The notes: a model not told the origin generated them from the sequence alone. DNA of 64,000 nt from a virus (IMGVR_UViG_3300012983_000038:1-64000), one strand, 5' to 3'; positions 1,890-29,204 are shown, counted from the stretch's first letter. Program-made: numbers and translations.

Positions 1890-3053
1890 ATGTTGAGAGC
1901 ATTTAGGTACGAGTTAAATCCGAATAAAACCCAGAGGAAGCTAATTAAGCAAACTTGTGGATGCTGTCGTCTAGTATATAATTATATGCTAGATGTAAAG
2001 AAAACTGCGTACGAAGAAGATAAAATTAATCTCTCGACATTTAATTTAATAAAGCTTATCACTAATCTAAAGAAGGATGATAAATATAGCTTTCTTAAAG
2101 ATGTTTCAATCAATGCATTGCAGCAATCCATTATTAATTTAGGGACTGCATATACTAATTTTTTTAGAAAGAAAAATAGTACAGGATTTCCTAAATTTAA
2201 GAAAAAAGGTGTGAGAGATAGCTTCAGAATACCTAAAGCTTGTAAAATAGATTACAATACTTGGAAAGTTAAGATTGCTAAGATCGGAGAAGTAAAGATA
2301 TTCAAGGGACGTAACAAACAGATAGCAGGTAAAATTAAATCTTATACAGTTAGTCATACTAGAAGAACAGACAGATACTTTATCTCTATCTTGTTTGAAG
2401 TTCCTGATAAGCCAAAATTAAATAATAATAAGTCTGTTGGTATTGATTTAGGAGTAAAAAACTTTGCAATATTAAGTGATGGAGAAGTATTTGAAAACCA
2501 AAAATACTTGAAATCTAATCTTAAGAAATTAAGAATATTACAAAGAACTGTTAGTAGAAGACATAAAAATAATGTCTCTACTGAAAAACAATCTAATAAC
2601 TGGAAAAAAGCAGTAAAACAACTTGCAAAATTACATGAACATATTGCCTTTCAGAGAAAAGACTTTTTGAATAAGGTAAGTACTGAAATAGCAAGAAATT
2701 ACTCTACTGTTTGTGTAGAAACATTAGATGTTAATAAGATGCTAATGAAAAGTAATCATCAATTGTCTCAATTAATATCTGATTGTGGATGGAGTATGTT
2801 CATTACAATGTTAGAGTATAAATGTGATACTTTAATAAAAGTTGATAAGTATTTTGCAAGTAGTCAAACATGTAGTAATTGCGGACATGTGGAAAGTAAA
2901 GTTAAAGATCTTTCTGTAAGATCTTGGATATGTCCTAATTGTAATACAGTACATAATAGAGATATAAATGCTGCAAAGAATATATTAAGGGAAGGACTAT
3001 CCCTTTGTGGACATAAAGTAAGTAATTGTACTATGCTTGTCCCAGGAACCTAA
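1890..3053 (+). CDS. tnpB: IS200/IS605-family RNA-guided endonuclease TnpB (no tnpA nearby)
   Basis: N-terminal HTH (AFRYELNPNKTQ...GCCRLVYN), RuvC-I GIDLG, RuvC-II VCVETL, zinc finger CSNC/CPNC, RuvC-III RDINAA; catalytic D-E-D intact. Confidence 0.95.
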   Translation: MLRAFRYELNPNKTQRKLIKQTCGCCRLVYNYMLDVKKTAYEEDKINLSTFNLIKLITNLKKDDKYSFLKDVSINALQQSIINLGTAYTNFFRKKNSTGFPKFKKKGVRDSFRIPKACKIDYNTWKVKIAKIGEVKIFKGRNKQIAGKIKSYTVSHTRRTDRYFISILFEVPDKPKLNNNKSVGIDLGVKNFAILSDGEVFENQKYLKSNLKKLRILQRTVSRRHKNNVSTEKQSNNWKKAVKQLAKLHEHIAFQRKDFLNKVSTEIARNYSTVCVETLDVNKMLMKSNHQLSQLISDCGWSMFITMLEYKCDTLIKVDKYFASSQTCSNCGHVESKVKDLSVRSWICPNCNTVHNRDINAAKNILREGLSLCGHKVSNCTMLVPGT

Positions 3054-3065
3054 TTAGTTTAATTA

Positions 3066-10814: not shown

Positions 10815-10869
10815 GCCTACAAGAATACTGAAACAAGGTATTACGATTCGATTCACTTGTAGGCACTAA
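10815..10869 (+). ncRNA. 50-nt structured RNA motif, copy 1 (three-way junction with UUCGAU loop) plus ACUAA tail
   Basis: GCCUACAAG/CUUGUAGGC stem; covaries with the copies at 18805, 19885 and 57897. Confidence 0.8.
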
Positions 10870-12943: not shown

Positions 12944-14095
12944 ATGATAGTTTTAAGGCAAAAAGAATATACTAGGGCTGAAAAAGAAGCAATGTTTCAA
13001 CTAATGAGGTTGACTAAGGGGTTTAAGTCATTACCTGAGTCATTAAATACTGTTGAAAATGCTACTAGATTTAAAAAGTTTTCAAATAGACTGGCAGAGT
13101 TTGCTAGAAAACCGTACCGTAAGATTAGTGCAAAGGATCTTAAGGAAATGAAGGGCTTTTTAAATGATATTGGAGCTGATAAGTTTGCTGATAATTTTGA
13201 ACCTATTATTAATAAGTACTATGGAAATAATAATATAGAGGCTTGGAAGAGACTGAGGCTTAGAGAAGAAAAGCTTCCAGCTAAAGCAATTGAGAATAGA
13301 AAAAATAGATTAACTAATAGGTCTGCTGATATTAAAAATTCTCTAGCAGAAGCAGACTCAGTCGCCAACAATTTTAAGTCAACTAAAGGTAAAAGTAGTA
13401 AGGAGATTTTTAGCAGTCCTGAAGGAAAGTTGATGAAGAATATTATAAAAGGAGAAACAGGCGGCATTAATCAACCAAGTATTCATTTTAATAAAGTTAA
13501 GGGTCGAAACAAATTATCTGATAAACTTACTAATGTCGCTATCAAAAGCGGCAGCGCTGGAGATTATCCAGAAAAATTAGTAAAAAAGCAAATAAAAAAG
13601 GACTTACGAGGAGGTAAAGATTTTTTTGCAGGAGATGGTCATGGCTATGTTTTTTTAAGTCATGCTAATCCGTCAATTCTTTCACATGAATTAGGGCACG
13701 GTAAGTCTTTTGCTAATTCAATTGCGGCAGGCACTCCTTTTAAGGTAGCGGTAGGTTCGCCTAAAAAACTTAGATCACATTTAGAAAAATCGGTGTCAAA
13801 AAGAGCTAGGGCGATATATGGACGTTTAGATAATTTATCAACTATTGCAGAAGAAAATATGGCCAATGTATACGGACGGGACATTATTAGAAAATATGGT
13901 GGAAAGAATGTAAATAAGCATTTAGCTGACTATGAAAAACTTGTAGATAATATTAATATGAAATCTTATTTGAGTGGAGCTAGACTCAATGATGTTAGAG
14001 AAAATGCTAGCATATTAAACAATATTAGAAGAAGAAGAGGAATGGTACAGCCTACTAATAGAAGACGGAAGGCAGTGACAGATTTAGAGAATTAG
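12944..14095 (+). CDS. basic putative head-cargo protein with HExxH zinc-metalloprotease motif
   Basis: N-terminal MIVLRQKEYT; SILSHELGH followed by EENMAN (gluzincin-like third ligand). Confidence 0.7.
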   Translation: MIVLRQKEYTRAEKEAMFQLMRLTKGFKSLPESLNTVENATRFKKFSNRLAEFARKPYRKISAKDLKEMKGFLNDIGADKFADNFEPIINKYYGNNNIEAWKRLRLREEKLPAKAIENRKNRLTNRSADIKNSLAEADSVANNFKSTKGKSSKEIFSSPEGKLMKNIIKGETGGINQPSIHFNKVKGRNKLSDKLTNVAIKSGSAGDYPEKLVKKQIKKDLRGGKDFFAGDGHGYVFLSHANPSILSHELGHGKSFANSIAAGTPFKVAVGSPKKLRSHLEKSVSKRARAIYGRLDNLSTIAEENMANVYGRDIIRKYGGKNVNKHLADYEKLVDNINMKSYLSGARLNDVRENASILNNIRRRRGMVQPTNRRRKAVTDLEN

Positions 14096-14105
14096 TCAAG
14101 TATTT

Positions 14106-14236
14106 TAAATATTTCTCCCTTTTTATAGAACAAAAATCATAGGGGGGGGGGAAATATTGATAATTAACAATACCCTCTATGATAATTAATAGATATGATA
14201 TTGGGATACGATTTCATTGAGGAAAGATTGTTTGCT
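14106..14236 (+). repeat. cassette leader repeat A (palindromic leader, G10, MILGYDFIEERLF coding start)
   Basis: Near-identical to 17245-17376, 18883-19013 and 19516-19639. Confidence 0.95.
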
Positions 14237-14598
14237 GCTATACAAAAAGTTGGGAAGACTGTTACAAATCCAGCAACTAAGGCAGCGCTGAAAAAAGCAA
14301 AAGCCACAAATACAAACAGTTTTCAGCAACCTTCTTGGTTTGGAGAAGCGATAAAGGATATGAAAAAAGGAGGAATTGATGGGAGGAAATATAAGGATGT
14401 AGGAATTTTTCCGCTGTAAGTAAGGTAGAGGCAATGGCACAATTTCGTAAGAGACTTAAAAAGGGTCCAGTAAAGGATGTAGGAATATTTTCAAAGCCAA
14501 AGCACGACCCAGATGTTAATTTGTTAATGTATGAGAATTATATCGGAGCGGATCCAGTAGTTACAAAAACAAAGAAATTGATCGGGCCACTGTACTAA
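14195..14598 (+). pseudogene. cassette A cargo gene split by a 1-nt frameshift (14195..14419 and 14434..14598)
   Basis: Adding one T in ATTTTTCC (~14405-14412) gives the continuous reading KDVGIFSAVSKVEAMAQFRK...KDVGIFSK...GPLY*. Confidence 0.55.
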
Positions 14599-14666
14599 TT
14601 AATAAAAAAATGTATCATGGCCTCATAAATGGCTACTAGTTTTGTACAGTAGTATAAAAATTAGCT

Positions 14667-14804
14667 TTAAATGCAGCAATAAATATTCTCAATGAAGGTT
14701 TGAGAATAAAAACCGTAGGAACTACGGAGATAGCCTAGGTAAACTTGTATCATTAGATATATTGACTAGGAAGCCCGCCGAGCTAAAGCTCGTGGGTAGT
14801 TCAC
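14667..14804 (+). mobile_element. orphan tnpB 3' end / omegaRNA / IS right end (different family from the 1890 tnpB)
   Basis: Encodes LNAAINILNEGLRIKTVGTTEIA* (a typical TnpB C-terminus), then GAAGCCC-hairpin-GGGTAGTTCAC. Confidence 0.85.
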
Positions 14805-14839
14805 AAGTACAGAGTTTTTAAATTAAAAATATTTTTGTC

Positions 14840-16606
14840 ATGAAGAAAAGTAATTTAATTGAGAAGTTGTTCGGGTCATTTGCGCCTGGAGCATCTAGAG
14901 TTCCTTTAAGGAGTAACATAGTTAGGGGGTCTGGTGGAGGATATAAGCCGATAGGAGGTTCTGCCAGTTCTAGAGCTTTTGGTATGGATAAAAAGTCTCC
15001 GCTATTAGGTAACTCATCTCCATCTACTTTAATTAGTGGTTACTATGAGAGAGTAGCAGAACTTAAAGGGTATCAACTACTGGACATTTCTAAATTAGCA
15101 ACTAACTTTTTTTCAGACTATGTACAGAACTTTTTGACAGATGCTAGTAATGGTAATTTAGTTAGTATTATGGATGAAGATTCTAACTCTATCAATGAGC
15201 AGGTAACTGATAGATTGAATAATATATTAACTAAAGATCTAAACATAGTTAATTTTATAAAGAATCATTTGAACGACTATATCTATTTTGGAGAGTATTT
15301 TGGAATGATCTCTACTAGTCTAGATGAATTAGGTCACCTAAAATTCAGGATAGAGGAAATAAATGATCCAGTATCTGTAATAACTAAGAAAATTAGGTCA
15401 AAAAGTACTGGCAAGATGGAAGAGATTTATTTGGCAAAAGGGAATGAGGGAGGTATTTATGAAATTCCTAAAAATAGCGTTGTTTTTATATCTACTTCAA
15501 ACTTAAGACTAGTAAATGATCTGTCAGAAGATGATAGAGATAATTATAATACTAGTACTGGCAGTGGAAGTACTAAGGCAAATAAGGATGCTTCTAAGTT
15601 AAATGATATCTTCTCTAAAAATACTAATAATAAAATAGTAAAAATACAAGAAGAGGATCCAGATAGCAATAGAAGTAAGGTTTTGAAAGATGATGCTTAT
15701 ATTGCCTCAGAACCACTACTATATTCTCTAATATTGAAAGTAAAGGAGTTAGTTATTAAAGAGCTGTTGGTTTCTCTTCTTTCACTAAGAGATCTATCAA
15801 GTGTTCAATTATTTTTACTACAATTTGATAAATCTGTTCCATTAGAGACTGCCAATAATATCTGTGCTAAGGCTACTAAGCTTGCGAATAATACTAATGA
15901 ACTTGCATCCTTTTTAACAGCACAGTTTGATGCAATTTCTTTTATAGAAAATGCACTAACTCAGCCTGCAAAGTTTATACCTGACTATAACTCTTCTTTG
16001 GCTGCTAAAAATGCAATGTTGCCGTTAGATAAGTTGTCAGAGAAAATGATTGAGATTATGCAGATGTTAGATCATTGTAAGGCAAGCGTTTTAGGACCTC
16101 TAGGACTTCCATCTACTCTTATAGATTCTACATCTGGCAGTAAGTGGCAAGTTTTACAACAATCAGAGAGAGCTAATTCACGTGTAACTTTCTATATTAA
16201 TGGTATTAAGGAGTCAGTTACTAAATTAGTTTGTAATATTTATGAGATAATTTATAAGGAAGAGTTGGATCCTTCGAGAGTTACGCTGCATATCTGTGAA
16301 AAGACTTCAGTAGAATATAATAATCAGATAAATCAATCTGAGTCTATAAATGGAATGTTGACTAGTATTTCTCAGATGTTACAAAATAGTTTACAGATGT
16401 TAGAGGCATCAGCTCCTCTAATTAATCCAGAGGCATTTTTATCCTATTTGCAAAAATTAATTAAGGATATAGATCCAGATGCAGATTCTTTGATTAATGA
16501 AGAAACTACTACTATGTACATTAATTACTTGAAGGCTAAGGTTGGTGCTGGAATGGAACAAATGGGAGTAGATCCTAATACGATTTTTGGAGGAGAACAA
16601 CAATAA
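14840..16606 (+). CDS. portal protein (T4 gp20-like)
   Basis: Size (588 aa), position after terL and before the protease, helical; YIYFGEYF and LGLPSTL segments resemble portal motifs. Confidence 0.7.
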   Translation: MKKSNLIEKLFGSFAPGASRVPLRSNIVRGSGGGYKPIGGSASSRAFGMDKKSPLLGNSSPSTLISGYYERVAELKGYQLLDISKLATNFFSDYVQNFLTDASNGNLVSIMDEDSNSINEQVTDRLNNILTKDLNIVNFIKNHLNDYIYFGEYFGMISTSLDELGHLKFRIEEINDPVSVITKKIRSKSTGKMEEIYLAKGNEGGIYEIPKNSVVFISTSNLRLVNDLSEDDRDNYNTSTGSGSTKANKDASKLNDIFSKNTNNKIVKIQEEDPDSNRSKVLKDDAYIASEPLLYSLILKVKELVIKELLVSLLSLRDLSSVQLFLLQFDKSVPLETANNICAKATKLANNTNELASFLTAQFDAISFIENALTQPAKFIPDYNSSLAAKNAMLPLDKLSEKMIEIMQMLDHCKASVLGPLGLPSTLIDSTSGSKWQVLQQSERANSRVTFYINGIKESVTKLVCNIYEIIYKEELDPSRVTLHICEKTSVEYNNQINQSESINGMLTSISQMLQNSLQMLEASAPLINPEAFLSYLQKLIKDIDPDADSLINEETTTMYINYLKAKVGAGMEQMGVDPNTIFGGEQQ

Positions 16607-16619
16607 GAGGTGATAATTT

Positions 16620-16937
16620 ATGGAAAACAAAGAAAATAAGAAACTCACTAAAGAGGAGAAGTTACAAAAGTTGGAAGAGGAGTTAGAGCTATTATCTAAA
16701 GGGAAAGTAACTGGTGCAGCATTGGCAGGGCTTGGAGGAGCGCTGTTAGGTGGAGGATATACTGCTGATTATTTAAATAGAACTCCAGGTCCTCGTCCAA
16801 GTAATCCTAATACCGCAAGAAACCTTAAAATTGCAGGAGCAATATCTATCCCTACTGGTGCAGCTTTAGTAGCTTATTCTTCCTATAAAAAGAAAAAACT
16901 GAAAGGAAGAAATGATAATAATAAGGAAGTGGACTAG
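16620..16937 (+). CDS. small membrane protein with glycine zipper
   Basis: GAALAGLGGALLGGG plus a second hydrophobic helix followed by a KKKK stretch. Confidence 0.75.
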   Translation: MENKENKKLTKEEKLQKLEEELELLSKGKVTGAALAGLGGALLGGGYTADYLNRTPGPRPSNPNTARNLKIAGAISIPTGAALVAYSSYKKKKLKGRNDNNKEVD

Positions 16938-17247
16938 GCTTTTTTCTTCAAGTGGAGATAACGTAGTAACCTCTAAAGATATTTTAATAGAGCAGATGAA
17001 GCAGCAGCGACAACTTATGCAGACAATTAGGCTTAAGGATAAACTCAGGGCTGAAGAAAGAAAGGAAAGAATGAGGTCTTTACAAAAAATTCAGAAAGCA
17101 AAACAAGAGGAGGACGAGCGAATTGTAAAAAGCATTACTAAAGCTGCAGAAGAATCTACTAATAATTCCGAAGGCATTAAAGCTAGGGCAATCAGTCTTT
17201 ATAAATCAAGATCTACGCCAGTGCCACCTGTGTCTATGAGTAATTAA
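16912..17247 (+). CDS. putative head-cargo coiled-coil protein
   Basis: N-terminal MIIIRKWTRLFS motif. Confidence 0.75.
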   Translation: MIIIRKWTRLFSSSGDNVVTSKDILIEQMKQQRQLMQTIRLKDKLRAEERKERMRSLQKIQKAKQEEDERIVKSITKAAEESTNNSEGIKARAISLYKSRSTPVPPVSMSN

Positions 17248-17376
17248 ATATTTCTCCCTTTTTATAGAAAACAAAAATCATAGGGGGGGGGGAAATATTG
17301 ATAATTAACAATACCCTCTATGATAATTAATAGATATGATACTAGGATATGATTTTGTAGAAGAAAGACTATATTC
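17245..17376 (+). repeat. cassette leader repeat B (G10)
   Basis: Near-identical to repeat A. Confidence 0.95.
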
Positions 17377-17815
17377 AGATTTATTAGAAGAGGAGAAATT
17401 GTTTGCATGGGCTCAATTGGCTAAGAAGGCAGGACTTAATGAAGCTGAGAAAAGGGCAGTAGGAGCAATGAGGAAAGGCGCAGCGAATAATTTATTTAAA
17501 ACACGTCCGGGCAAAGTATATCTCGGTAATGGACTCACAGGTGCCGACGCAATTCAAATCGAAGGTTTACAAGGACGTAATAATATAGTTGCGTTAGATA
17601 TGGCAAAAGAAATGGGAAAAGCTAAAGTACCAAAGGATATTGCAAAAGGATTAAAAGAATTATATCCACGCAATCCTTCTGAAAAAGAAAAACTTGCCAA
17701 AAGATTAATTGAAGAGACGATGGGAAAGCCGTTAGATAAGATTACTAGAAAAGATTTTGTTTTGTTTAGAGACAATATTGCCTCTGGCCTTAAGAAGATT
17801 GGTAGCATGCAGTAA
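17336..17815 (+). CDS. cassette B cargo protein (MILGYDFVEERLYS...EKLFA)
   Basis: Shared N-terminus, unique basic payload. Confidence 0.85.
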   Translation: MILGYDFVEERLYSDLLEEEKLFAWAQLAKKAGLNEAEKRAVGAMRKGAANNLFKTRPGKVYLGNGLTGADAIQIEGLQGRNNIVALDMAKEMGKAKVPKDIAKGLKELYPRNPSEKEKLAKRLIEETMGKPLDKITRKDFVLFRDNIASGLKKIGSMQ

Positions 17816-17930
17816 ATAAGAAAAATAAAGAGATAAAAAGAAATAAGAATTAGAGCAACTCTCTCAAGTAAATGAAGAAAGAGAGGGAAAAGTAGCTCTA
17901 CAAACAATTTAAATTATAAGTTTTAATATT

Positions 17931-18761
17931 ATGTACATTAGAAGAAAAGTATTTTCCCTTATGGAAGATGTTAATGGAGATTTGAGATATTTTTCAACAA
18001 CCGATTATGACTATGATGATTTGTTGATGGAGCGTCTATATGCTGATCTTGAGGATGAGGATAGTGGTATTGGACGTCGTGCAGCTATTATTGGTGGTGC
18101 AGGTGTACTAGGTGCTGCAGGTGCTACAGGTATTGGAGCATATTTGAATAAAAAAGCAGCATACGATGCAGCTCTAGCAGGAAAGAAGAAGGGCGTAGAT
18201 TACCAGTTGTTGGAGCGCGACCTTAAAGATGCTGTCAAGAAACATAAAGATGCTATTTCTGGATTGAAGAAGACCAGAGTTAGCAAATATAAAGACCTTA
18301 ATAGTCTTAAGAAAATGGAAGGAGCTTATAATAATCTCGTAAGTGGAAAGGCAGATACTCTTTTAGGAGAAAAATTAACTAAGAGTGAAATAGAAAACCT
18401 TAAAAATAACGGTTTCAAAAAATTTGCTAAAGAAATCAGTGATAGATCAAGATCTGCTCAATTGATGGATCAATACGAACGCGAATTATTAGAGACAGGA
18501 AAGTCAAATAAAAAATTAGCAGCTGAGATTAAGAAGCTAGGATATCATGAATATGAGGGACTTAATGCTAATGCATTTAAGAATAAGGAAGCTGCAGAAA
18601 AAGCATTGAACAAGTTGACCAAGAAGTACGAAACTGAGGCTGCTAAGGCAGGAAGAGAAGGCATGTGGAAGTTCGGAAAGAAGGGTGCAGCAGGTATTGC
18701 GCTTGGAGGTCTAGGTCTAGCTGGTGCTGCAGCATTGGCAACTCGTCGTAGAGATGAATAA
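17931..18761 (+). CDS. putative head-cargo protein with two glycine-zipper helices
   Basis: MYIRRKVFS...RYFS...ERLYA; GGAGVLGAAGATGIG and GAAGIALGGLGLAG. Confidence 0.85.
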   Translation: MYIRRKVFSLMEDVNGDLRYFSTTDYDYDDLLMERLYADLEDEDSGIGRRAAIIGGAGVLGAAGATGIGAYLNKKAAYDAALAGKKKGVDYQLLERDLKDAVKKHKDAISGLKKTRVSKYKDLNSLKKMEGAYNNLVSGKADTLLGEKLTKSEIENLKNNGFKKFAKEISDRSRSAQLMDQYERELLETGKSNKKLAAEIKKLGYHEYEGLNANAFKNKEAAEKALNKLTKKYETEAAKAGREGMWKFGKKGAAGIALGGLGLAGAAALATRRRDE

Positions 18762-18804
18762 TCTTTACAATTAGTAGAGAAGAGCTTATAGCCTTTTATA
18801 AAAA

Positions 18805-18859
18805 ACTTACGGGAAAGTTGAAATAAGACTTTACGATTCGATTCACCCGTAAGTACTAA
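18805..18859 (+). ncRNA. 50-nt structured RNA motif, copy 2
   Basis: ACUUACGGG/CCCGUAAGU stem (compensatory changes versus copy 1), AAAGUU/GACUUU stem, UUCGAU loop, ACUAA. Confidence 0.8.
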
Positions 18860-18882
18860 TAAAATATTGACAGAAAATGCTT

Positions 18883-19013
18883 TAAATATTTCCCCTTTTT
18901 TATAAAACAAAAATCATAGGGGGGGGAAATATTGATAATTAACAATACCCTCTATGATAATTAATATAGATATGATACTAGGATACGATTTTATAGAAGA
19001 AAGACTATTTAGT
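18883..19013 (+). repeat. cassette leader repeat C (G8)
   Basis: Near-identical to repeat A. Confidence 0.95.
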
Positions 19014-19382
19014 AGTTGGGGAGTATTAAGTAAACAATTAAAGGATCCTACAGCCAGAGCATACGTAAAAAGTGTTAGGGATGAGCAAGCAAGGATATTG
19101 CGAGATAGACTAAATAGCGCACGGGAAAGCAGGCTTAAAGATGTTAAGCAAGTGTTGGAAAATCCAAGGCTGAGTAAAAAAGATAAAAAATTTATTCTTG
19201 GAAGTAAAGAAGGACTGTTTAATAGTGCAATCGATAACATATACGCAAGTGGGGCACTTAGAGATTCTATTAAAAATAACAGAAGCGCAAATAAAAATAT
19301 CTATAGAAAACAGCTAGACCTTTACAGGAAATTGGCAGATCAGGAAGCAGATAAGGCATTTAAATTAGCGAAGCTGGTTTAA
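18972..19382 (+). CDS. cassette C cargo protein (true start MILGYDFIEERLFS at 18972)
   Basis: Start set by homology to the other cassettes; the track's start at 18954 lies inside the leader repeat. Confidence 0.85.
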   Translation: MILGYDFIEERLFSSWGVLSKQLKDPTARAYVKSVRDEQARILRDRLNSARESRLKDVKQVLENPRLSKKDKKFILGSKEGLFNSAIDNIYASGALRDSIKNNRSANKNIYRKQLDLYRKLADQEADKAFKLAKLV

Positions 19383-19515
19383 TTTGATGATAATAATCTG
19401 CTGAGAAACTACTCACTTCAATTTCTAGAAGAAGAACAACATAGTACTAAGGCAGCTGCGAAGATAGCGAGAAGAATTTAGTACTAATAAAATATCGACA
19501 AAAAAGAATAACTAG

Positions 19516-19639
19516 ATATTTCTCCCTTTTTATAGAACAAAAATCATAGGGGGGAAATATTGATAATTAACAATACCCTCTATGATAATTAATAGATATG
19601 ATACTAGGTAGTGATTTCATTGAGGAGAGATTGTTTGCT
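19516..19639 (+). repeat. cassette leader repeat D (G6)
   Basis: Near-identical to repeat A. Confidence 0.95.
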
Positions 19640-19837
19640 GTACATCATTATAAAGGTTTAACGAAGCCGCAGGCTGATAATTTACGAAAATGTAGATCTG
19701 AGTTAGCAAGTAGTCTTAATAAAATAAGAAATAAGTATAGAGGTGATCAAAATATGTTAGACCGCTATAAAAATGGAGTTAAAAGTATTGCAGAGGACCA
19801 CGATGCGTATTTGATTAGAAAGGGATCAATACTCTAA
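19598..19837 (+). CDS. cassette D cargo protein (MILGSDFIEERLFA)
   Basis: Shared N-terminus, unique payload. Confidence 0.85.
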   Translation: MILGSDFIEERLFAVHHYKGLTKPQADNLRKCRSELASSLNKIRNKYRGDQNMLDRYKNGVKSIAEDHDAYLIRKGSIL

Positions 19838-19884: not shown

Positions 19885-19939
19885 GCCTACGAGAGTACTG
19901 AAATATGGTACTATGATTCGATTCACTTGTAGGCACTAA
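19885..19939 (+). ncRNA. 50-nt structured RNA motif, copy 3
   Basis: GCCUACGAG/CUUGUAGGC, AGUACU/GGUACU, UGA-UUCGAU-UCA, ACUAA. Confidence 0.8.
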
Positions 19940-19976: not shown

Positions 19977-21230
19977 ATGGAAGTAAGAGTAAGATGTTGC
20001 AGTTTGACAAAGCCTGCAGCAGATGGTTCATTGATAGGAGAATCAGTTGTACGAGATTACCTAAATTCAGAAGATTATCGAAGAGCCGTTGAAGGAAAAG
20101 TTATGTTAGGTTACTTAACACACAGGGGTAGATCTTTAGAGACTATGCCAGATAATGTAGGTAATGTAGCAGCACTTAAGAAAACAATTGGTAAAGATGA
20201 CGCTGGATTATGTGTAGTAGACGGGGCTCCAACTTTTACTCACTATGTAAAAGAGCTTTATATAGATGAAGTTCCGGGAGAGGGACCTTGGTTGATGGCA
20301 GTAGTTCATATATTTAACCCTAAAGATTTTGATGAACGTGCTGCAGAAAATATTAAGAGGCTCCGTGCATTAATAAAGGCAGGAGTAGCGCTATGTTGTA
20401 GTTTAGTGGTAGTAGCGTATTGGGACTCTCAGACGAATGGTACTGATATTTGCCGTCAGATCAAAAGCATTAAGAGCTTAGATTGGACAGCTAATCCTAG
20501 TTTCGGTCCTCTGGCTAGAATTACGGAAGTTATCAGTGATGGAGAAGATGAAAGAGAGTTTTCAGAAGTAGAGAGAGATGATAGATACTCACTAAAGATG
20601 GGTGAAATGAAGGTAAAATCTTTCTCGAACTTAGAAAAATTTGGATTAGGAGGAGTACCAAAGACATCAAAGGTTAATGGTTACTACACTCAATTGAAAG
20701 TTAAGCAATATTCTACGATGAGTGATGTAGATATTGTGTCAGAGGGAGAAACTTCAGCGGGATATTCTCAAAAGTCGTTCACAGCAATGTCAGTAAATGA
20801 ACGAATTAGGTATGCGAAGTTAAGTCCTAGAGAGCGATTTAGAAGATTAATACTTGATTATCGACAATCTATTAAGACTCAAGGAGGAGTTAGTAAGATT
20901 GATAAAGATACGTTAAAAACTATGAAGTCATTATTTGCCGGTGATGTATTGGAGATTATGAAAACAGTAACTCCGATGGTCTTAGAAGGAAAAAATTTAA
21001 TGACTTTGTTGAATGCAGGATCTTTAGGTGTTCAAGTAAGAAAGGCGTGTCAAGCCATGTACTTGCCATATAAACAGGCATTGGTAGAAGTAGGTAAGCA
21101 GGGATTCGTAAGTAAGCAGAGATTTTCAAAGATTACTGCAGCGTATTCCGAGTTTATCAGTTCATTGCAAGACTATGTATTTGGAGCTGCGCCTATTGAG
21201 ATTGATAATGAGTTAAAAGAGGAGGAGTAA
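19977..21230 (+). CDS. prohead (maturation) protease, T4 gp21-like, with C-terminal extension
   Basis: GYLTH (His), CCSL (Ser) and SLDWTANPSF (Asp) parallel the gp21-type GELxH / VSSR / DxVxxPS motifs; lies upstream of the scaffold and capsid genes. Confidence 0.8.
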   Translation: MEVRVRCCSLTKPAADGSLIGESVVRDYLNSEDYRRAVEGKVMLGYLTHRGRSLETMPDNVGNVAALKKTIGKDDAGLCVVDGAPTFTHYVKELYIDEVPGEGPWLMAVVHIFNPKDFDERAAENIKRLRALIKAGVALCCSLVVVAYWDSQTNGTDICRQIKSIKSLDWTANPSFGPLARITEVISDGEDEREFSEVERDDRYSLKMGEMKVKSFSNLEKFGLGGVPKTSKVNGYYTQLKVKQYSTMSDVDIVSEGETSAGYSQKSFTAMSVNERIRYAKLSPRERFRRLILDYRQSIKTQGGVSKIDKDTLKTMKSLFAGDVLEIMKTVTPMVLEGKNLMTLLNAGSLGVQVRKACQAMYLPYKQALVEVGKQGFVSKQRFSKITAAYSEFISSLQDYVFGAAPIEIDNELKEEE

Positions 21231-22150: not shown

Positions 22151-24565
22151 ATGAAAAATACTAGATTTATGGAAAGACTCTTTTCTGCAACGAGAGAAGG
22201 GGATGAAGAGTTAACTCAGCAAGTAGCAGACGATATCGAAACTGCAAAAGCTGTAGGAGAAGTAGATACTGACGAAGTAAAATATGAGAATGCTGGTAAT
22301 GGCCAAGTAGCTATTACTGACAAAGAAAACGGTGAAGTTACACTAGCAGAGCAAGGGCCAGATGGTAATTACGATCTTAGTCCTTTACAAGTAACTGGGC
22401 AACTTGAGGGATTTATCCATCCGGGAATGGATGGTGTAACCCCGGGTTCTCAGCAAGGTGAAATGGACGAACATGCAGGTTATCATATCCCCGAAGGCTC
22501 TATTAGTGGAATTGATGAATTGTCCTGGGAGGATTACGGAGATGGATGCTGTGAAGGGTGCGGCGAGAAATCTTTTTCTGTATACTCTGACAATTTCGTA
22601 GTACAAAAGATCTTCAGCGATCAAGAGTTTTGCGAGAGAGTATTTTCTGAAGTAATCGAATCAGAAGAAACTGCAAAAGTTGGAGACTTGAAGATTGAAA
22701 AGTGCGACGATGAGGATAATTGTGTAATTGTTACTAGTGAATCAACTGGAGATCAAGCAAAAGTTACTTTAGAGGATGATGAAATGGAAGTAACTGAATT
22801 GGACTCTAAGAATTTTAGTGATGAAGAAGAGCAGTATGATCCTTTGCACGTAGTTGGAGTAGATGTAACTAATCACATGATAGTAGATGCTCCTGAATAT
22901 GATGAGGAGTCAGCTCAGGCTTTGGTAGAGCGTCTAACTGAGAGTGGCGTAGATGGTTGTCAGATTTTTGATAGTGCTGACGAAGCTCGTGATTACGCAT
23001 TTGAATTATTGGGCGGTCTCGATGTAAAGAGCTTGGATCATGTAGACGAGCCAGAGGAAGTTGCCTTCTCTGATTTGTATGGATTCAGACATTCAGGCTA
23101 TGTAACTAAATTTTACACAGATAATACCGAATATATGGATCGTTCTTTCTCAGAAAATCTTAATGACTTGGAGGTTTCAAGAGAAGAGTTAGAAGATGCT
23201 ATTGAGAATGGTGATCAAATTGAAAATGATACTGAAATTATTACACCAATTGACGCTAAGTCGGCTGTAATTGAGGATAAGGAGTCTGGAGAGTTCACAA
23301 AAGCAGTTATTGATTCTGCAACTACTGAACTTGTTCCTCTATCAAGAAGTGAGGCTCGTGATCTTACTGCTAACATTGAGGTTGATGAAGATTCTGAAGA
23401 GGATGAGGATGAAGAAAAATCATTCTCAGATGTATGGACAGATGATACTGAGACTCGTTTCTTCTCTGAAAATGAGATCTTGACGGAATACATGACTCGT
23501 CTATTCTCTGGAGATTCAGATGAAGAGGCAATTGAGGATGCTATTGAGAATGGTGATCAAGTAGAGAATGATACTGAAATCATTACTCCTATTGATGCTA
23601 AGACTGCAGTAATTGAGGACAAAGAGTCTGGAGAGTTTACTAAAGCTGTAATGGATGATGAGGATATTGATCTCTCTCCTATTTCTGAGGAAGAAGCTGA
23701 AGAGCTCACTGCTAATCTTGAAATAGAGGATACAGATGAAGATGAGGATGAAGAGAAGGATTTTTCAGATGTATGGACAGATGATACAGAAACTCGTTTC
23801 TTCTCTGAAAATGAGATCTTGACGGAATACATGACTCGCTTGTTTACTGAGGAATCAGATGAAGAGGCAATCGAAGATGCTATTGAGAATGGTGATCAAG
23901 TAGAGAATGATACTGAGGTTATTACTCCAATTGATGCTAAAACCGCAGTAGTTGAGGATAAGGAGTCTGGAGAATTTACTAAAGCAGTAATGGATGAAGA
24001 TGGAATTGATCTTACTCCTATTTCAGAGGAAGAAGCTGAAGAGCTTACAGAAGATCTTGAAATAGAGGATACAGATAAAGATGAGGATAAAAATTTCTCA
24101 TTCTATGAAGATCCTATACTAGATAAGTTCTTTGCTGATGTAGTAGATCAGACTGCAGCACAAGCAGCTCAAGCGCAAATGGCACCTCAACAAATGATGG
24201 CACCTCAACAGCAAATGATGGCACCTCAACAGTCAGCAGCTCAGGCACCTATTCAGCCTACTGAAGATGGAGGTTATGTTATGGAAGAGCAACCTAGTAT
24301 TGAAATGATTGAGGACAAAGCTATTGCCGCAGTTCAATCTATTCAGGCAGCAGCAGCAGAGGCAGAGGCTATGATCATGAATGCTAAGGCTGCACCTATG
24401 GAACAAGTAGAGCCTGATCTTCAAGAAGCACAATTCTCATACTATTTTGATGATTATGAAGATGATTTGAAAGATAGAATGTTCTCTGATGCAGAGTACG
24501 TAGAATATGAGGAGGTTAAGCCTGATACATTAGTGTCATTCTTAAGTGATGTAATTAATAAATAG
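22151..24565 (+). CDS. acidic prohead core/scaffold protein with internal repeats
   Basis: Very E/D-rich, directly upstream of the capsid gene, about 16 [KR]x[FY][STA] sites. Confidence 0.75.
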   Translation: MKNTRFMERLFSATREGDEELTQQVADDIETAKAVGEVDTDEVKYENAGNGQVAITDKENGEVTLAEQGPDGNYDLSPLQVTGQLEGFIHPGMDGVTPGSQQGEMDEHAGYHIPEGSISGIDELSWEDYGDGCCEGCGEKSFSVYSDNFVVQKIFSDQEFCERVFSEVIESEETAKVGDLKIEKCDDEDNCVIVTSESTGDQAKVTLEDDEMEVTELDSKNFSDEEEQYDPLHVVGVDVTNHMIVDAPEYDEESAQALVERLTESGVDGCQIFDSADEARDYAFELLGGLDVKSLDHVDEPEEVAFSDLYGFRHSGYVTKFYTDNTEYMDRSFSENLNDLEVSREELEDAIENGDQIENDTEIITPIDAKSAVIEDKESGEFTKAVIDSATTELVPLSRSEARDLTANIEVDEDSEEDEDEEKSFSDVWTDDTETRFFSENEILTEYMTRLFSGDSDEEAIEDAIENGDQVENDTEIITPIDAKTAVIEDKESGEFTKAVMDDEDIDLSPISEEEAEELTANLEIEDTDEDEDEEKDFSDVWTDDTETRFFSENEILTEYMTRLFTEESDEEAIEDAIENGDQVENDTEVITPIDAKTAVVEDKESGEFTKAVMDEDGIDLTPISEEEAEELTEDLEIEDTDKDEDKNFSFYEDPILDKFFADVVDQTAAQAAQAQMAPQQMMAPQQQMMAPQQSAAQAPIQPTEDGGYVMEEQPSIEMIEDKAIAAVQSIQAAAAEAEAMIMNAKAAPMEQVEPDLQEAQFSYYFDDYEDDLKDRMFSDAEYVEYEEVKPDTLVSFLSDVINK
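23192..24100 (+). repeat. three tandem ~113-aa coding repeats in the scaffold
   Basis: EDAIENGDQ units start at 23192, 23534 and 23873 (periods 342 and 339 nt). Confidence 0.95.
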
Positions 24566-24645: not shown

Positions 24646-26106
24646 ATGAGTACTTATTTGAATTTTATGCAAACTCCAGCAATGATGGAGGCTTTGGTGA
24701 ATAGCTCTGTATCACGTGAGGATGCTAACTTGCGTGCTAGAGAATATGCTAAGATGTTTTCTCGTAATGATGAAATGAAATACAACTTTGGAATTGCACC
24801 ATCTAATAACTTGATGCAAAAGACTTTCTCTGGATACTCTGAGACTCCATTGTTGTCAACTCAATACTTTAATGCATCTGTAGCTTCTTATGTAAGTTCA
24901 TTTGCTGGATACATGTCAATTGAGCGTGACTTTGATCAACCTAATGGATTATTCTATTGGTTCGACGTACTAGGTGTATCTGACATGCGTTCTGTAATTC
25001 CTAACTTGGGACCAGATAATTACCAAGATATTCAAAGCATGGGTGGATTCAGCTTGAATGTACAGCCTTCTGAAGGTGGAATATATGATGCATTGATTGG
25101 TCGTAAGGTTATCCCAGGTACTGTTCGCATTAAGATCTCTTGTGGAACAGGTGATAAGGTAGAGAAAGTTCACGAAATGATTGATAATGGACAAGGAACT
25201 TTCATGGCTGTTACAGGTGTTACTACTGCCAATGAGATTAATTATTTGAATGGCCGCGTTAAGTTTACTCTTGATGACGCTATTGCTGGAAACACTTTGT
25301 CAATTCTCATCATTGGTAAAGAGGATGTCACTGGAACTCCTTGCAATACTACTGGTTCAGGTAGCAGCAATTTCCGTTCAAATGAGAAACGTTTCTTGGC
25401 TAAGATGCAACAATTAGGTCTTTCTACAGTACCTGATATGTTGGTAGCTGAGTATAATATTGCAGCTTTGGGAGCAATGAAGAAGGCTACTGGAACTGAT
25501 ATGGCAACTTTCTTGTTTGGTAAGCTTCGTGAGTTGTATACTAAGATGATTAACTACAAGCTCGTTTCTACTATGGAAGAGGGTTATAAAGGTGATACTT
25601 TGAATGACCTTGAGATTGAAGTTACTACATCAGCTAAGCAATTCTACGACTACCGTTCTCGAGTTGACTTGTTCGATGCTTACTTGATCAATGTAGAGGC
25701 TGCTTTGGCCGCTAAAGCTGTTAAGGGAGTAAAGACTACTGCTTACGTTGCTGGTAATAATGCATCTAATCAGTTCATGAAGGGCGGTATTATTGGTAAG
25801 TTTGAGAGAAATACTAAGATGTCTTATATCAATGACTTGCTTGGATGGTATGACGGAATTCCTGTTCTTCGTTCTACTGACATTAATGAGCAAAACGGTG
25901 AGAACGTATTCTATGCTATCCACAAGACTGATGATGGACAAATGGCACCTTTGGCACGTGGTATCTACATGCCTTTGACTGATACTCCTACTATTGGTAA
26001 TTATCAGAACCCTACACAAATGGCTTCTGGTATCTACTATCAAGAGGGAACTAAGTACATGGCACCTGAGCTCGTACAACGTGTTTCTTTCAAAGCAGGT
26101 ATTTAA
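24646..26106 (+). CDS. major capsid protein (T4 gp23-like, HK97 fold)
   Basis: 486 aa after the scaffold; DQPNGLFYWF and GIYMPL motifs; codon bias typical of a highly expressed gene; terminator downstream. Confidence 0.9.
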   Translation: MSTYLNFMQTPAMMEALVNSSVSREDANLRAREYAKMFSRNDEMKYNFGIAPSNNLMQKTFSGYSETPLLSTQYFNASVASYVSSFAGYMSIERDFDQPNGLFYWFDVLGVSDMRSVIPNLGPDNYQDIQSMGGFSLNVQPSEGGIYDALIGRKVIPGTVRIKISCGTGDKVEKVHEMIDNGQGTFMAVTGVTTANEINYLNGRVKFTLDDAIAGNTLSILIIGKEDVTGTPCNTTGSGSSNFRSNEKRFLAKMQQLGLSTVPDMLVAEYNIAALGAMKKATGTDMATFLFGKLRELYTKMINYKLVSTMEEGYKGDTLNDLEIEVTTSAKQFYDYRSRVDLFDAYLINVEAALAAKAVKGVKTTAYVAGNNASNQFMKGGIIGKFERNTKMSYINDLLGWYDGIPVLRSTDINEQNGENVFYAIHKTDDGQMAPLARGIYMPLTDTPTIGNYQNPTQMASGIYYQEGTKYMAPELVQRVSFKAGI

Positions 26107-26259: not shown

Positions 26260-26393
26260 GCGAGAAAACCCATTACTTTAGTTGTGGGATGATAGCAATA
26301 TTAAGGGAAGGGCTATCCCTTTGTGGACGTAAAGTAAGTAATTGTACTAAGCTTGTCCCAAGATCCCCATTAATTTATTGAGGGGAGTAGTCA
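26260..26393 (+). mobile_element. non-autonomous IS200/IS605 derivative (left-end hairpin, omegaRNA, right end) related to the tnpB at 1890
   Basis: 26298-26360 matches 2982-3044 at 60/63 nt. It ends with a CCCC...GGGG hairpin and TAGTCA, and begins with the GAAAACCCA...TGGGATGATAGC hairpin. Confidence 0.85.
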
Positions 26394-26600
26394 GATATTC
26401 TAACTTCAGGAGTACGTGGCGCATTAGGTGGTGGATTAGGTGCAAGAAAGAATGCTTCTGAGTCAATAGAGTTAGCTAGTTTATATGAATCGGATTCTAA
26501 GAGATTTAAAGAGAGGAAGAAGTAGAAAACTCACTATTCTGCTTGTTCCAATATTCCCCATTAGTTCACTAATGGAAGTAGTCAGAAAATTAAAAATTGT

Positions 26601-28205: not shown

Positions 28206-29204
28206 ATGATTATTCTTAAAAAAGAATTACGTTATTCTCAGGATAGTGATAGTGTTGAGAAGAAAAAGGATAATAAAAAACTTTTAGCTAGTGCAATAAT
28301 TCCTGTCACTGCAGGTTTGGCAATTAATACTGCTGGGGCAGGTTTAGTCTATAATGCTTCAAAAAAAGATAAGGAATTTGAGAAAAAAATCTCAAGTGAG
28401 CTGGCAAATAAGTTCAAAAAACAAGGAGGAATATTAATATCTAATAAAGAAGGATTAGATGGTGCAACTTCGACTGAACTATTTCTTAGTCCATATAAAA
28501 AAGCGGGAATTAAGTCTAAGGAAGACTTGAAAAAGCTGTCTAGTATCTTAAATAAGTACAAATCTAATGGATCAGAAAAAGATCTAAAAGAGAGCATTGA
28601 AAAATTAGTAAATTATGATAAGTCCAAAACTAAAAAACTATGTAATGAAACTAAGAAGTTAAAAAAAGGCGGCGCGATTGAAATCGTATCTTCTGCTGCT
28701 AAAGGAAAGGCAGTTCCTATAGTAACTATAGATAAAGGAAAAGAAACTTCATCTATACTAGCACATGAATTAGGTCATGTTTATTATCATAACGAAGGGA
28801 AGAACAGTTTAGTTGGACTAGCTCACAAGCTTTATAAACCAGAAAATGCATTGAAAAGCAGGTTAGGAGTACTGACAGGGCTCTCTACTGGAATAAAGGC
28901 TGGTAGATCGGATGAGGAGGAGAGTAAATTGAATAAGTATTCTGGGGCACTAGTATCGTTAGCAACAGATGCACCTATGTTAGGAGCAGAGTACGGAGCT
29001 AATATAAGAGGAAATAAAATACTCAATGATGCAGTAAAGAAATACGGATCGAAGGCCGCAGGTAGAGTAACAAAGGTTCCATTTTTAGGATCTGCCGCAG
29101 GTTATACTGGTATTGCCGGGCTTAATGCAGGAATATCACAAGGAGCACATATATTAGGAAAGAAAATAGGAAAGAAGATTAAGGAGAAGGAAGAGGGCAA
29201 GTAA
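28206..29204 (+). CDS. putative cargo membrane-associated HExxH zinc metalloprotease
   Basis: MIILKKELRYS; hydrophobic helices; SILAHELGH...AEYGAN. Confidence 0.75.
   Translation: MIILKKELRYSQDSDSVEKKKDNKKLLASAIIPVTAGLAINTAGAGLVYNASKKDKEFEKKISSELANKFKKQGGILISNKEGLDGATSTELFLSPYKKAGIKSKEDLKKLSSILNKYKSNGSEKDLKESIEKLVNYDKSKTKKLCNETKKLKKGGAIEIVSSAAKGKAVPIVTIDKGKETSSILAHELGHVYYHNEGKNSLVGLAHKLYKPENALKSRLGVLTGLSTGIKAGRSDEEESKLNKYSGALVSLATDAPMLGAEYGANIRGNKILNDAVKKYGSKAAGRVTKVPFLGSAAGYTGIAGLNAGISQGAHILGKKIGKKIKEKEEGK

Follow-up and report, generated by a model that had tools for sequence, protein, structure and literature searches.

Among the T-even phages, the internal proteins are a diverse set that have only a 10-residue capsid targeting sequence (CTS) in common, which is removed by the protease gp21 (PMC3012670, PMC9026906). 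PeSL cassettes combine a stem-loop that has a poly-G stem and G-T pairs with a sigma70-like promoter; where close strains differ by an insertion or deletion, these elements mark its edges, and they form mini-circles (PMC2839356, PMC4122927). PeSL-like analogues sit at the T-even internal-protein loci (PMC2839356). Here we analyze a 64,000-nt stretch of viral DNA (IMGVR_UViG_3300012983_000038:1-64000, referred to as the window), in which four copies of a leader run into the codons of a conserved 14-residue peptide, the address peptide, and from there into four different small basic proteins, the payloads of cassettes c1 to c4. By analogy, the locus looks like a union of the PeSL cassette and the internal-protein CTS in one unit, in an unrelated giant-phage lineage and with an apparently different motif rule.

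With moderate confidence, we read the four repeats as a 5′ module common to four genes that would encode small basic internal head proteins; gp21-like cleavage would act on its peptide, and recombination on its DNA. As in the T-even internal proteins (IPI, IPII, IPIII and more than 30 variants) with their CTS, a short N-terminal peptide stands on unrelated small basic proteins (PMC3012670, PMC9026906), the phage has a gp21-fold prohead protease, and the loci are hypervariable, with a repertoire that varies among close relatives. On the other hand, the address has no sequence homology to the T4 CTS, and its conserved end is [RK]-L-[FY]-[AS], in contrast to the [LI]-x-E cleavage rule of T4. T4 has two internal-protein loci, whereas the cassette genes are scattered among morphogenesis genes. 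As in the PeSLs of phi1, RB49, PST and nt-1, the leader is a composite that runs from an upstream stop to a downstream start (PMC2839356, PMC4122927), with a stem-loop containing poly-G and G-T pairs and putative sigma70-like -35 and -10 boxes; and insertions, deletions and replacements in close strains are bounded by the elements, with one junction of the kind that a mini-circle would leave. Unlike PeSLs, of which there are ~50 copies per genome, there are four leaders in 97 kb; the leader has no Shine-Dalgarno motif, its -10 hexamer is poorly conserved, and the repeated sequence extends beyond the leader, in frame, through 14 codons. PeSLs are mostly found beside early ORFans, while the leaders here lie in the head module. 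The T4 analogy had been drawn in the original prediction, which a model made from the sequence alone, and it agrees with the published work (PMC2839356, PMC3012670, PMC9026906).

A repeat search finds one family with four direct copies of ~155 nt, at 14102-14256, 17243-17397, 18879-19033 and 19505-19659. No fifth copy, even a weak one, is present on the whole 97,239-bp contig that holds the window; besides the four there is just an 18-nt chance match. Each copy consists of a ~90-nt non-coding leader, an ATG plus 13 codons, and the start of a body, all on the plus strand. The leaders span 14102..14194, 17243..17335 (overlapping the stop codon of open reading frame (ORF) 16912), 18879..18971 and 19505..19597, as found by the repeat search and alignment. 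The aligned address peptides follow at 14195..14236 (MILGYDFIEERLFA), 17336..17377 (MILGYDFVEERLYS), 18972..19013 (MILGYDFIEERLFS) and 19598..19639 (MILGSDFIEERLFA), with the consensus MILG[YS]DF[IV]EERL[FY][AS]; in the c2 family the shared module extends to about residue 30.

Conservation along the repeat has two tiers. The ~90 nt 5′ of the ATG are almost invariant in the alignment of the four copies, and the stretch from the G-tract to the ATG matches at 43 of 43 nt in all six pairs, save for a 2-nt insertion in c3. In the 42 nt of the 14 codons, identity between copies drops to 69-86%, and the differences are mostly synonymous. The 60 nt that come after are at background identity (14-25 of 60). 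An almost invariant leader next to mostly synonymous variation indicates that the peptide is kept as protein and the leader as nucleotide sequence. An ATG within the leader (CTATGATAAT; 18954-18971 in c3) opens a short out-of-frame upstream ORF in c1, c2 and c4. In c3 (at 18954), and in a cassette named c2′ of the related strain L106, the 2-nt insertion puts this ATG in frame, giving MIINID-MILGYDF.

The bodies behind the address are c1 (14237..14419; 60 aa, pI 10.1), c2 (17378..17815; 145 aa, pI 9.8), c3 (19014..19382; 122 aa, pI 10.2) and c4 (19640..19837; 65 aa, pI 9.9). All payloads behind a leader, including those of relatives, are basic, with pI 9.7-10.2. Two-sequence BLASTP finds no similarity between any of the four window bodies (best E 0.1-3). 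Thus, the four near-identical blocks with unrelated basic payloads that had been noticed by reading the sequence are borne out by repeat search, alignment and BLASTP. No homologue of c3 was found anywhere, the ESM Atlas gave no usable match for c2 or c3, and no payload matches any family. The c1 body has been shortened by a partial duplication of ~100 nt at 14342-14442 (KDVGIF occurs twice), which divides the c1 gene into ORFs of 74 and 54 aa, the second being the detached 3′ part (ORF 14434, 14434..14598, plus strand). Because the equivalent in L106 is a single 89-aa ORF spanning c1 and ORF 14434, the gene has probably been split in the window.

The contig, of which the window makes up the first 64 kb, is viral and has 33% G+C and a CheckV completeness of 26%. 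The contigs of relatives reach 326-380 kb; therefore the source is a giant phage, of a lineage of ~370 kb in a family found in rumen and gut metagenomes. We gathered 99 related loci using as marker gene the conserved ORF 14840 (14840..16606, plus strand), a portal candidate by an unverified name, and found the closer strains (L106, L109, L118 and others) via protein look-ups. The four-cassette arrangement is real and not an assembly artefact, because an independent ENA assembly from another sample (L110) is 100% identical over 20.4 kb with unchanged gene order; the order ORF 16912, c2, ORF 17931 is also present in L115. A megablast search with the region matched no deposited phage. Viral contigs do not contain an exact 26-mer of the leader, and neither viral nor metagenome contigs contain a degenerate back-translation of the address peptide, although the record of the window itself may be missing from these collections. 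The peptide MILGYDF occurs in none of the 99 portal relatives (53-62% portal identity), and the 33-aa N-terminal module of c2 matched just two clusters among 1.84 billion representative proteins.

We judged the variability of the leader on 8 distinct copies from three strains. Hairpin A (~14108-14158 in copy 1) has energies of -15.6 to -17.5 kcal/mol with z of about -3 to -3.5, and includes G-U pairs; on the minus strand it is weaker (-10.2 kcal/mol). Its arms never vary in the 8 copies, but its loop length does. Hairpin B (~14136-14183 in copy 1) reaches -15.6 to -17.4 kcal/mol in 7 of the 8, and covers the -35 to -10 region. The stem-loop is well supported. We found no compensatory base changes in the leader, as the copies are too similar, and Rfam has no family that matches it. 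Hairpins A and B compete for one G-tract and are mutually exclusive. This G-tract (14142-14151, 17283-17292, 18919-18926 and 19549-19554) has lengths of 10, 10, 8 and 6 nt in the four copies, and for one and the same cassette it differs between strains (10 vs. 8 in c1, 6 vs. 8 in c4). Because the G-tract belongs to both competing hairpins, its slippage could tune expression.

Near the start codon, the leader has a sigma70-like site, TTGATA-N18-GATAAT (14157-14186 in copy 1), with a TTGATA box unchanged in all 8 distinct copies. As a sigma70-type promoter it is only a consensus match. No Shine-Dalgarno motif was found before the cassette ATGs, and these motifs are depleted over the contig (21 observed vs. 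33 expected).

The end of the address peptide, written more generally as [RK]x[FY][STAG], is not particular to the cassettes. It occurs in the first 25 residues of 20 of the 34 proteins of the head module (12.7-41.1 kb), while 2.5 ± 1.5 proteins are expected from shuffles (2.3 in a second comparison), and only 1 of 49 proteins has it elsewhere on the contig. This distribution is what would show if these were sites of maturation cleavage or targeting. The address peptide itself is not a separate invention, being one variant of a signature common to ~20 head-module proteins. The T4-like [LI]xE motif has a weak enrichment that is not specific to the module (13 vs. 6.3 expected; elsewhere 18 vs. 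11.5). The giant phages phiKZ, 201phi2-1 and SPN3US similarly have many head proteins with N-terminal propeptides and redundant motif sites, and a T4-like protease (PMC9026906, PMC5694885, PMC10052503). However, they cleave after Glu at S/A/G-x-E, a motif that is not enriched in the head-protein N-termini here (7 observed vs. 8.6 ± 2.4 expected), and descriptions of these phages include no leader that is shared at the nucleotide level.

The signature recurs in the neighbouring morphogenesis genes, all on the plus strand. ORF 19977 (19977..21230) is a prohead protease: residues 1-173 have the T4 gp21 fold, and a fold search of this N-terminal domain aligns it to T4 gp21 (5jbl) with Z 10.7 and rmsd 2.7 Å over 134 of 165 residues, far above the next rows. 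A profile of the protease found no sequence match in the PDB, so that the fold search alone succeeded; it backs the protease that had been predicted among the neighbours. The linker of this protein has conserved KxFS motifs. ORF 22151 (22151..24565) encodes an acidic protein of 804 aa with three tandem repeats of ~113 aa and many xRLFS and KxFSD motifs (it is dense in xRLFS/KxFS). It resembles a scaffold, one that would be broken down into small fragments by the protease. In the capsid-protein candidate (24646..26106), the KMFS and KTFS sites of the N-terminal region, within EYAKMFSRN (33-41) and QKTFSG (58-63), are invariant in relatives. Its AlphaFold model is unusable (pLDDT 38), and the name is not confirmed by fold. 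PHROGs, Pfam and NCBIfam have no match to the terL, portal and capsid candidates or to the payloads. The terL and portal names of the original prediction are thus confirmed by no family library, and we use these names, and that of the capsid, as putative ones based only on position, size and conservation.

The signature might still have nothing to do with capsids. The module could recombine as we describe, and its N-terminal peptide could serve translation initiation on mRNAs that are leaderless or lack a Shine-Dalgarno, or some other sorting, such as membrane insertion of glycine-zipper proteins, the leader being a bistable RNA switch tuned by the G-tract. The lack of Shine-Dalgarno enrichment over the contig and the pair of mutually exclusive hairpins on a G-tract of variable length would fit this, many of the signature proteins also have hydrophobic segments rich in Gly and Ala, and packaging is something we infer. 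Even so, we consider this explanation unlikely. The signature is confined to the module that has the capsid candidate, the protease and the scaffold-like protein, and it recurs inside all three: within the scaffold-like protein, along the linker of the protease, and at sites of the capsid N-terminal region that are invariant, a distribution that suits maturation cleavage sites better than a translation signal.

Comparison of strains shows how the cassettes change. In L106 (96% portal nt identity), a leader with c2′ stands directly 3′ of the homologue of ORF 12944, where the window has a leader with c1. It is followed by a block whose counterpart in the window lies at 26.3-27.2 kb, then by a gene for 313 aa, a leader with c1′, and the portal. 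Between c2 and c2′, identity is ~93% from -95 to +85 nt and then falls to background; the two protein bodies score 16 bits, vs. 8.9 ± 5.9 in shuffled controls. An unrelated body instead of that of c2 is carried by L107 and L108 as well as L106. The L106 c2′ leader is of the c3-like variant. Both L106 leaders have TTGATAG, which is in none of the four window leaders, and this shared substitution indicates concerted evolution of the leaders within a genome.

L118 (80-95% nt identity) is without c1, c2 and c3. A single leader occupies the place where the window has leader-c3-leader, and behind this same leader is a c4 orthologue, 73% identical. A second leader, with MIFGSDFVEERLFA, heads a 366-aa HExxH protein (L118:16720-17820). 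The body of this protein is homologous (E 8e-23) to window ORF 28206 (28206..29204, plus strand), whose N-terminus is different and starts MIILKKELRYS. A separate repeated element of ~50 nt, at 18805-18855 and 19885-19935 (also at 10815 and 57897), brackets the c3-c4 pair in the window, and the same element is also found 5′ of the single leader with c4′ in L118. The zincin-like motif SIL[SA]HE[LM]GH is found in three proteins (12944-14095, 28206-29204 and L118:16720-17820), all with N-terminal signatures of the head type. No library names them; they may be virion-carried metallopeptidases.

L109 is identical to the window through the c3 body, and continues with a c4-type leader and c2. This c3-leader-c2 junction, not present in the window, has the form expected from a circle or a tandem duplication. 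Other assemblies break at the leader. After c2, L109 keeps the intergenic region of the window and ORF 17931 up to its eighth codon (MYIRRKVF), and then has a new body. ORF 17931 (17931..18761, plus strand) heads a second family of N-modules, MYIRRKVFS (17931-17954; L109:1211-1378; L118:9025-9822), with three bodies in three close strains. The breakpoints are at codon 8 in L109 and at about codon 30 in L118, and distant relatives have several copies, as does L015 with five MYIRRKVFS...GEERLFS genes. Of 65 loci that span 9 kb or more, 34 have pairs of ORFs that are similar in their first 45 residues and dissimilar beyond, which shows that placing one N-module on unrelated bodies is common practice throughout the family.

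The gain or loss of c3 and the inserted L106 block are bounded by leaders, and the swap of the c2 body occurs just 3′ of the module. In these comparisons, the module acts as a joint for recombination, where bodies can be exchanged or relocated and can come and go. The mobile module of the original prediction holds up as a portable joint: L106, L118 and L109 have different payloads behind one leader and different copy numbers, and the same four genes are not fixed in the relatives. The comparison with polymorphic toxin and effector loci (Rhs, CDI, T6SS), in which recombination likewise exchanges variable bodies at a conserved end that serves delivery, is an analogy only, as scale, machinery and setting are wholly different and toxin/immunity genes are absent here.

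Could the cassettes be ordinary paralogues, that is, one small gene duplicated four times, in which the leader and N-terminus were kept for expression and the bodies diverged, with no modular exchange? The four bodies do have small size, basic charge and a probable helical structure in common, similarity between such short proteins fades fast, and some relatives have recent tandem duplicates with bodies that are still similar. But gradual divergence cannot make a step such as that between c2 and c2′, where identity goes from ~93% to background at +85 nt even though the flanks are 94-96% identical. Cassette positions that differ between strains, different N-modules on one body family, and leaders that evolve in concert within a genome also speak for exchange, and we find simple paralogy quite improbable.

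Alternatively, the leader could be the end of a selfish mobile element, for instance a hairpin-ended miniature element derived from IS200/IS605 and tied to the TnpB gene at 1890-3053, spread by repeated transposition. The contig does have that TnpB gene, the leader does have imperfect hairpins, and an omegaRNA-like remnant adjoins c2′ in L106. We reject this explanation as scarcely credible: the leader is unlike the TnpB flanks and is limited on the contig to its four copies and the chance match, each copy is in the same register with the ATG and in frame into the conserved peptide, and neither a second end nor a target duplication is visible. An omegaRNA-like stretch that resembles the 3′ end of TnpB (26297-26394; compare 2975-3059 and L106:1267-1371) lies 5′ of ORF 26601. 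Stretch and ORF move together as a block, which in L106 is next to c2′.

We return to the reading of the repeats as 5′ modules of internal head proteins. The module would have three parts. The first is the leader with its two strong hairpins vying for one variable G-tract; the second would be the TTGATA-N18-GATAAT site beside a start codon that has no Shine-Dalgarno; and the third would be a 14-codon propeptide ending in R-L-[FY]-[AS], this phage's version of the head-module signature [RK]x[FY][STAG]. The propeptide would steer the protein into the prohead core and then be removed by the gp21-like protease ORF 19977. As the module is kept nearly identical in nucleotides, it may double as a site of homologous recombination and gene conversion, and recombination there would cause bodies to be swapped, moved, gained and lost between strains.

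Several points weigh against this reading. Within the right half of the leader, variation is greatest in the putative -10 hexamer (GATAAT, GATAAG, GATGAT, GGTGAT), 2 of the 8 distinct leader copies have lost a base critical for sigma70 recognition, promoter-like sites are not in excess over the whole region, and the likely host class may not have sigma70-type promoters. The scissile bond is ambiguous, as a T4-like I-E-E occupies address residues 8-10. The L109 junction comes from one metagenome contig of 1.4 kb, which could be a chimera, and with c1 split in the window at least one cassette may be decaying. Moreover, we saw the address on only six types of body, all from a single narrow lineage and from three or four of its strains, so that the earlier claim of a module that turns any ORF into cargo was too strong. 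Finally, we infer packaging, cleavage, injection, promoter activity and an anti-defence role only from sequence.

A bolder version, which we offer as a speculation with little probability, would see in [RK]x[FY][ST] a previously undescribed code for prohead-protease cleavage and capsid targeting in a large family of gut and rumen phages of ~330-380 kb. The MILGYDFIEERLF module would then govern expression, dosage and addressing as one self-contained unit, in which the hypervariable G-tract, by favouring one or the other RNA hairpin, determines the dose of each cargo, and in which a single recombination event could load new proteins into the capsid, such as anti-defence effectors or HExxH enzymes.

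If the peptide is a capsid address, then the arrangement known from T4, in which interchangeable internal proteins are paired with a targeting sequence, would extend to unrelated, uncultured giant phages of the gut and rumen, apparently with another motif rule. It would give a sequence handle with which to list the proteins that these phages inject, candidates for anti-defence factors, and it would offer a natural design for loading foreign proteins into the capsids of phages of anaerobic gut bacteria. If true, the locus would also be a clear natural case of a shared module, regulatory and coding at once, driving gene exchange from strain to strain.

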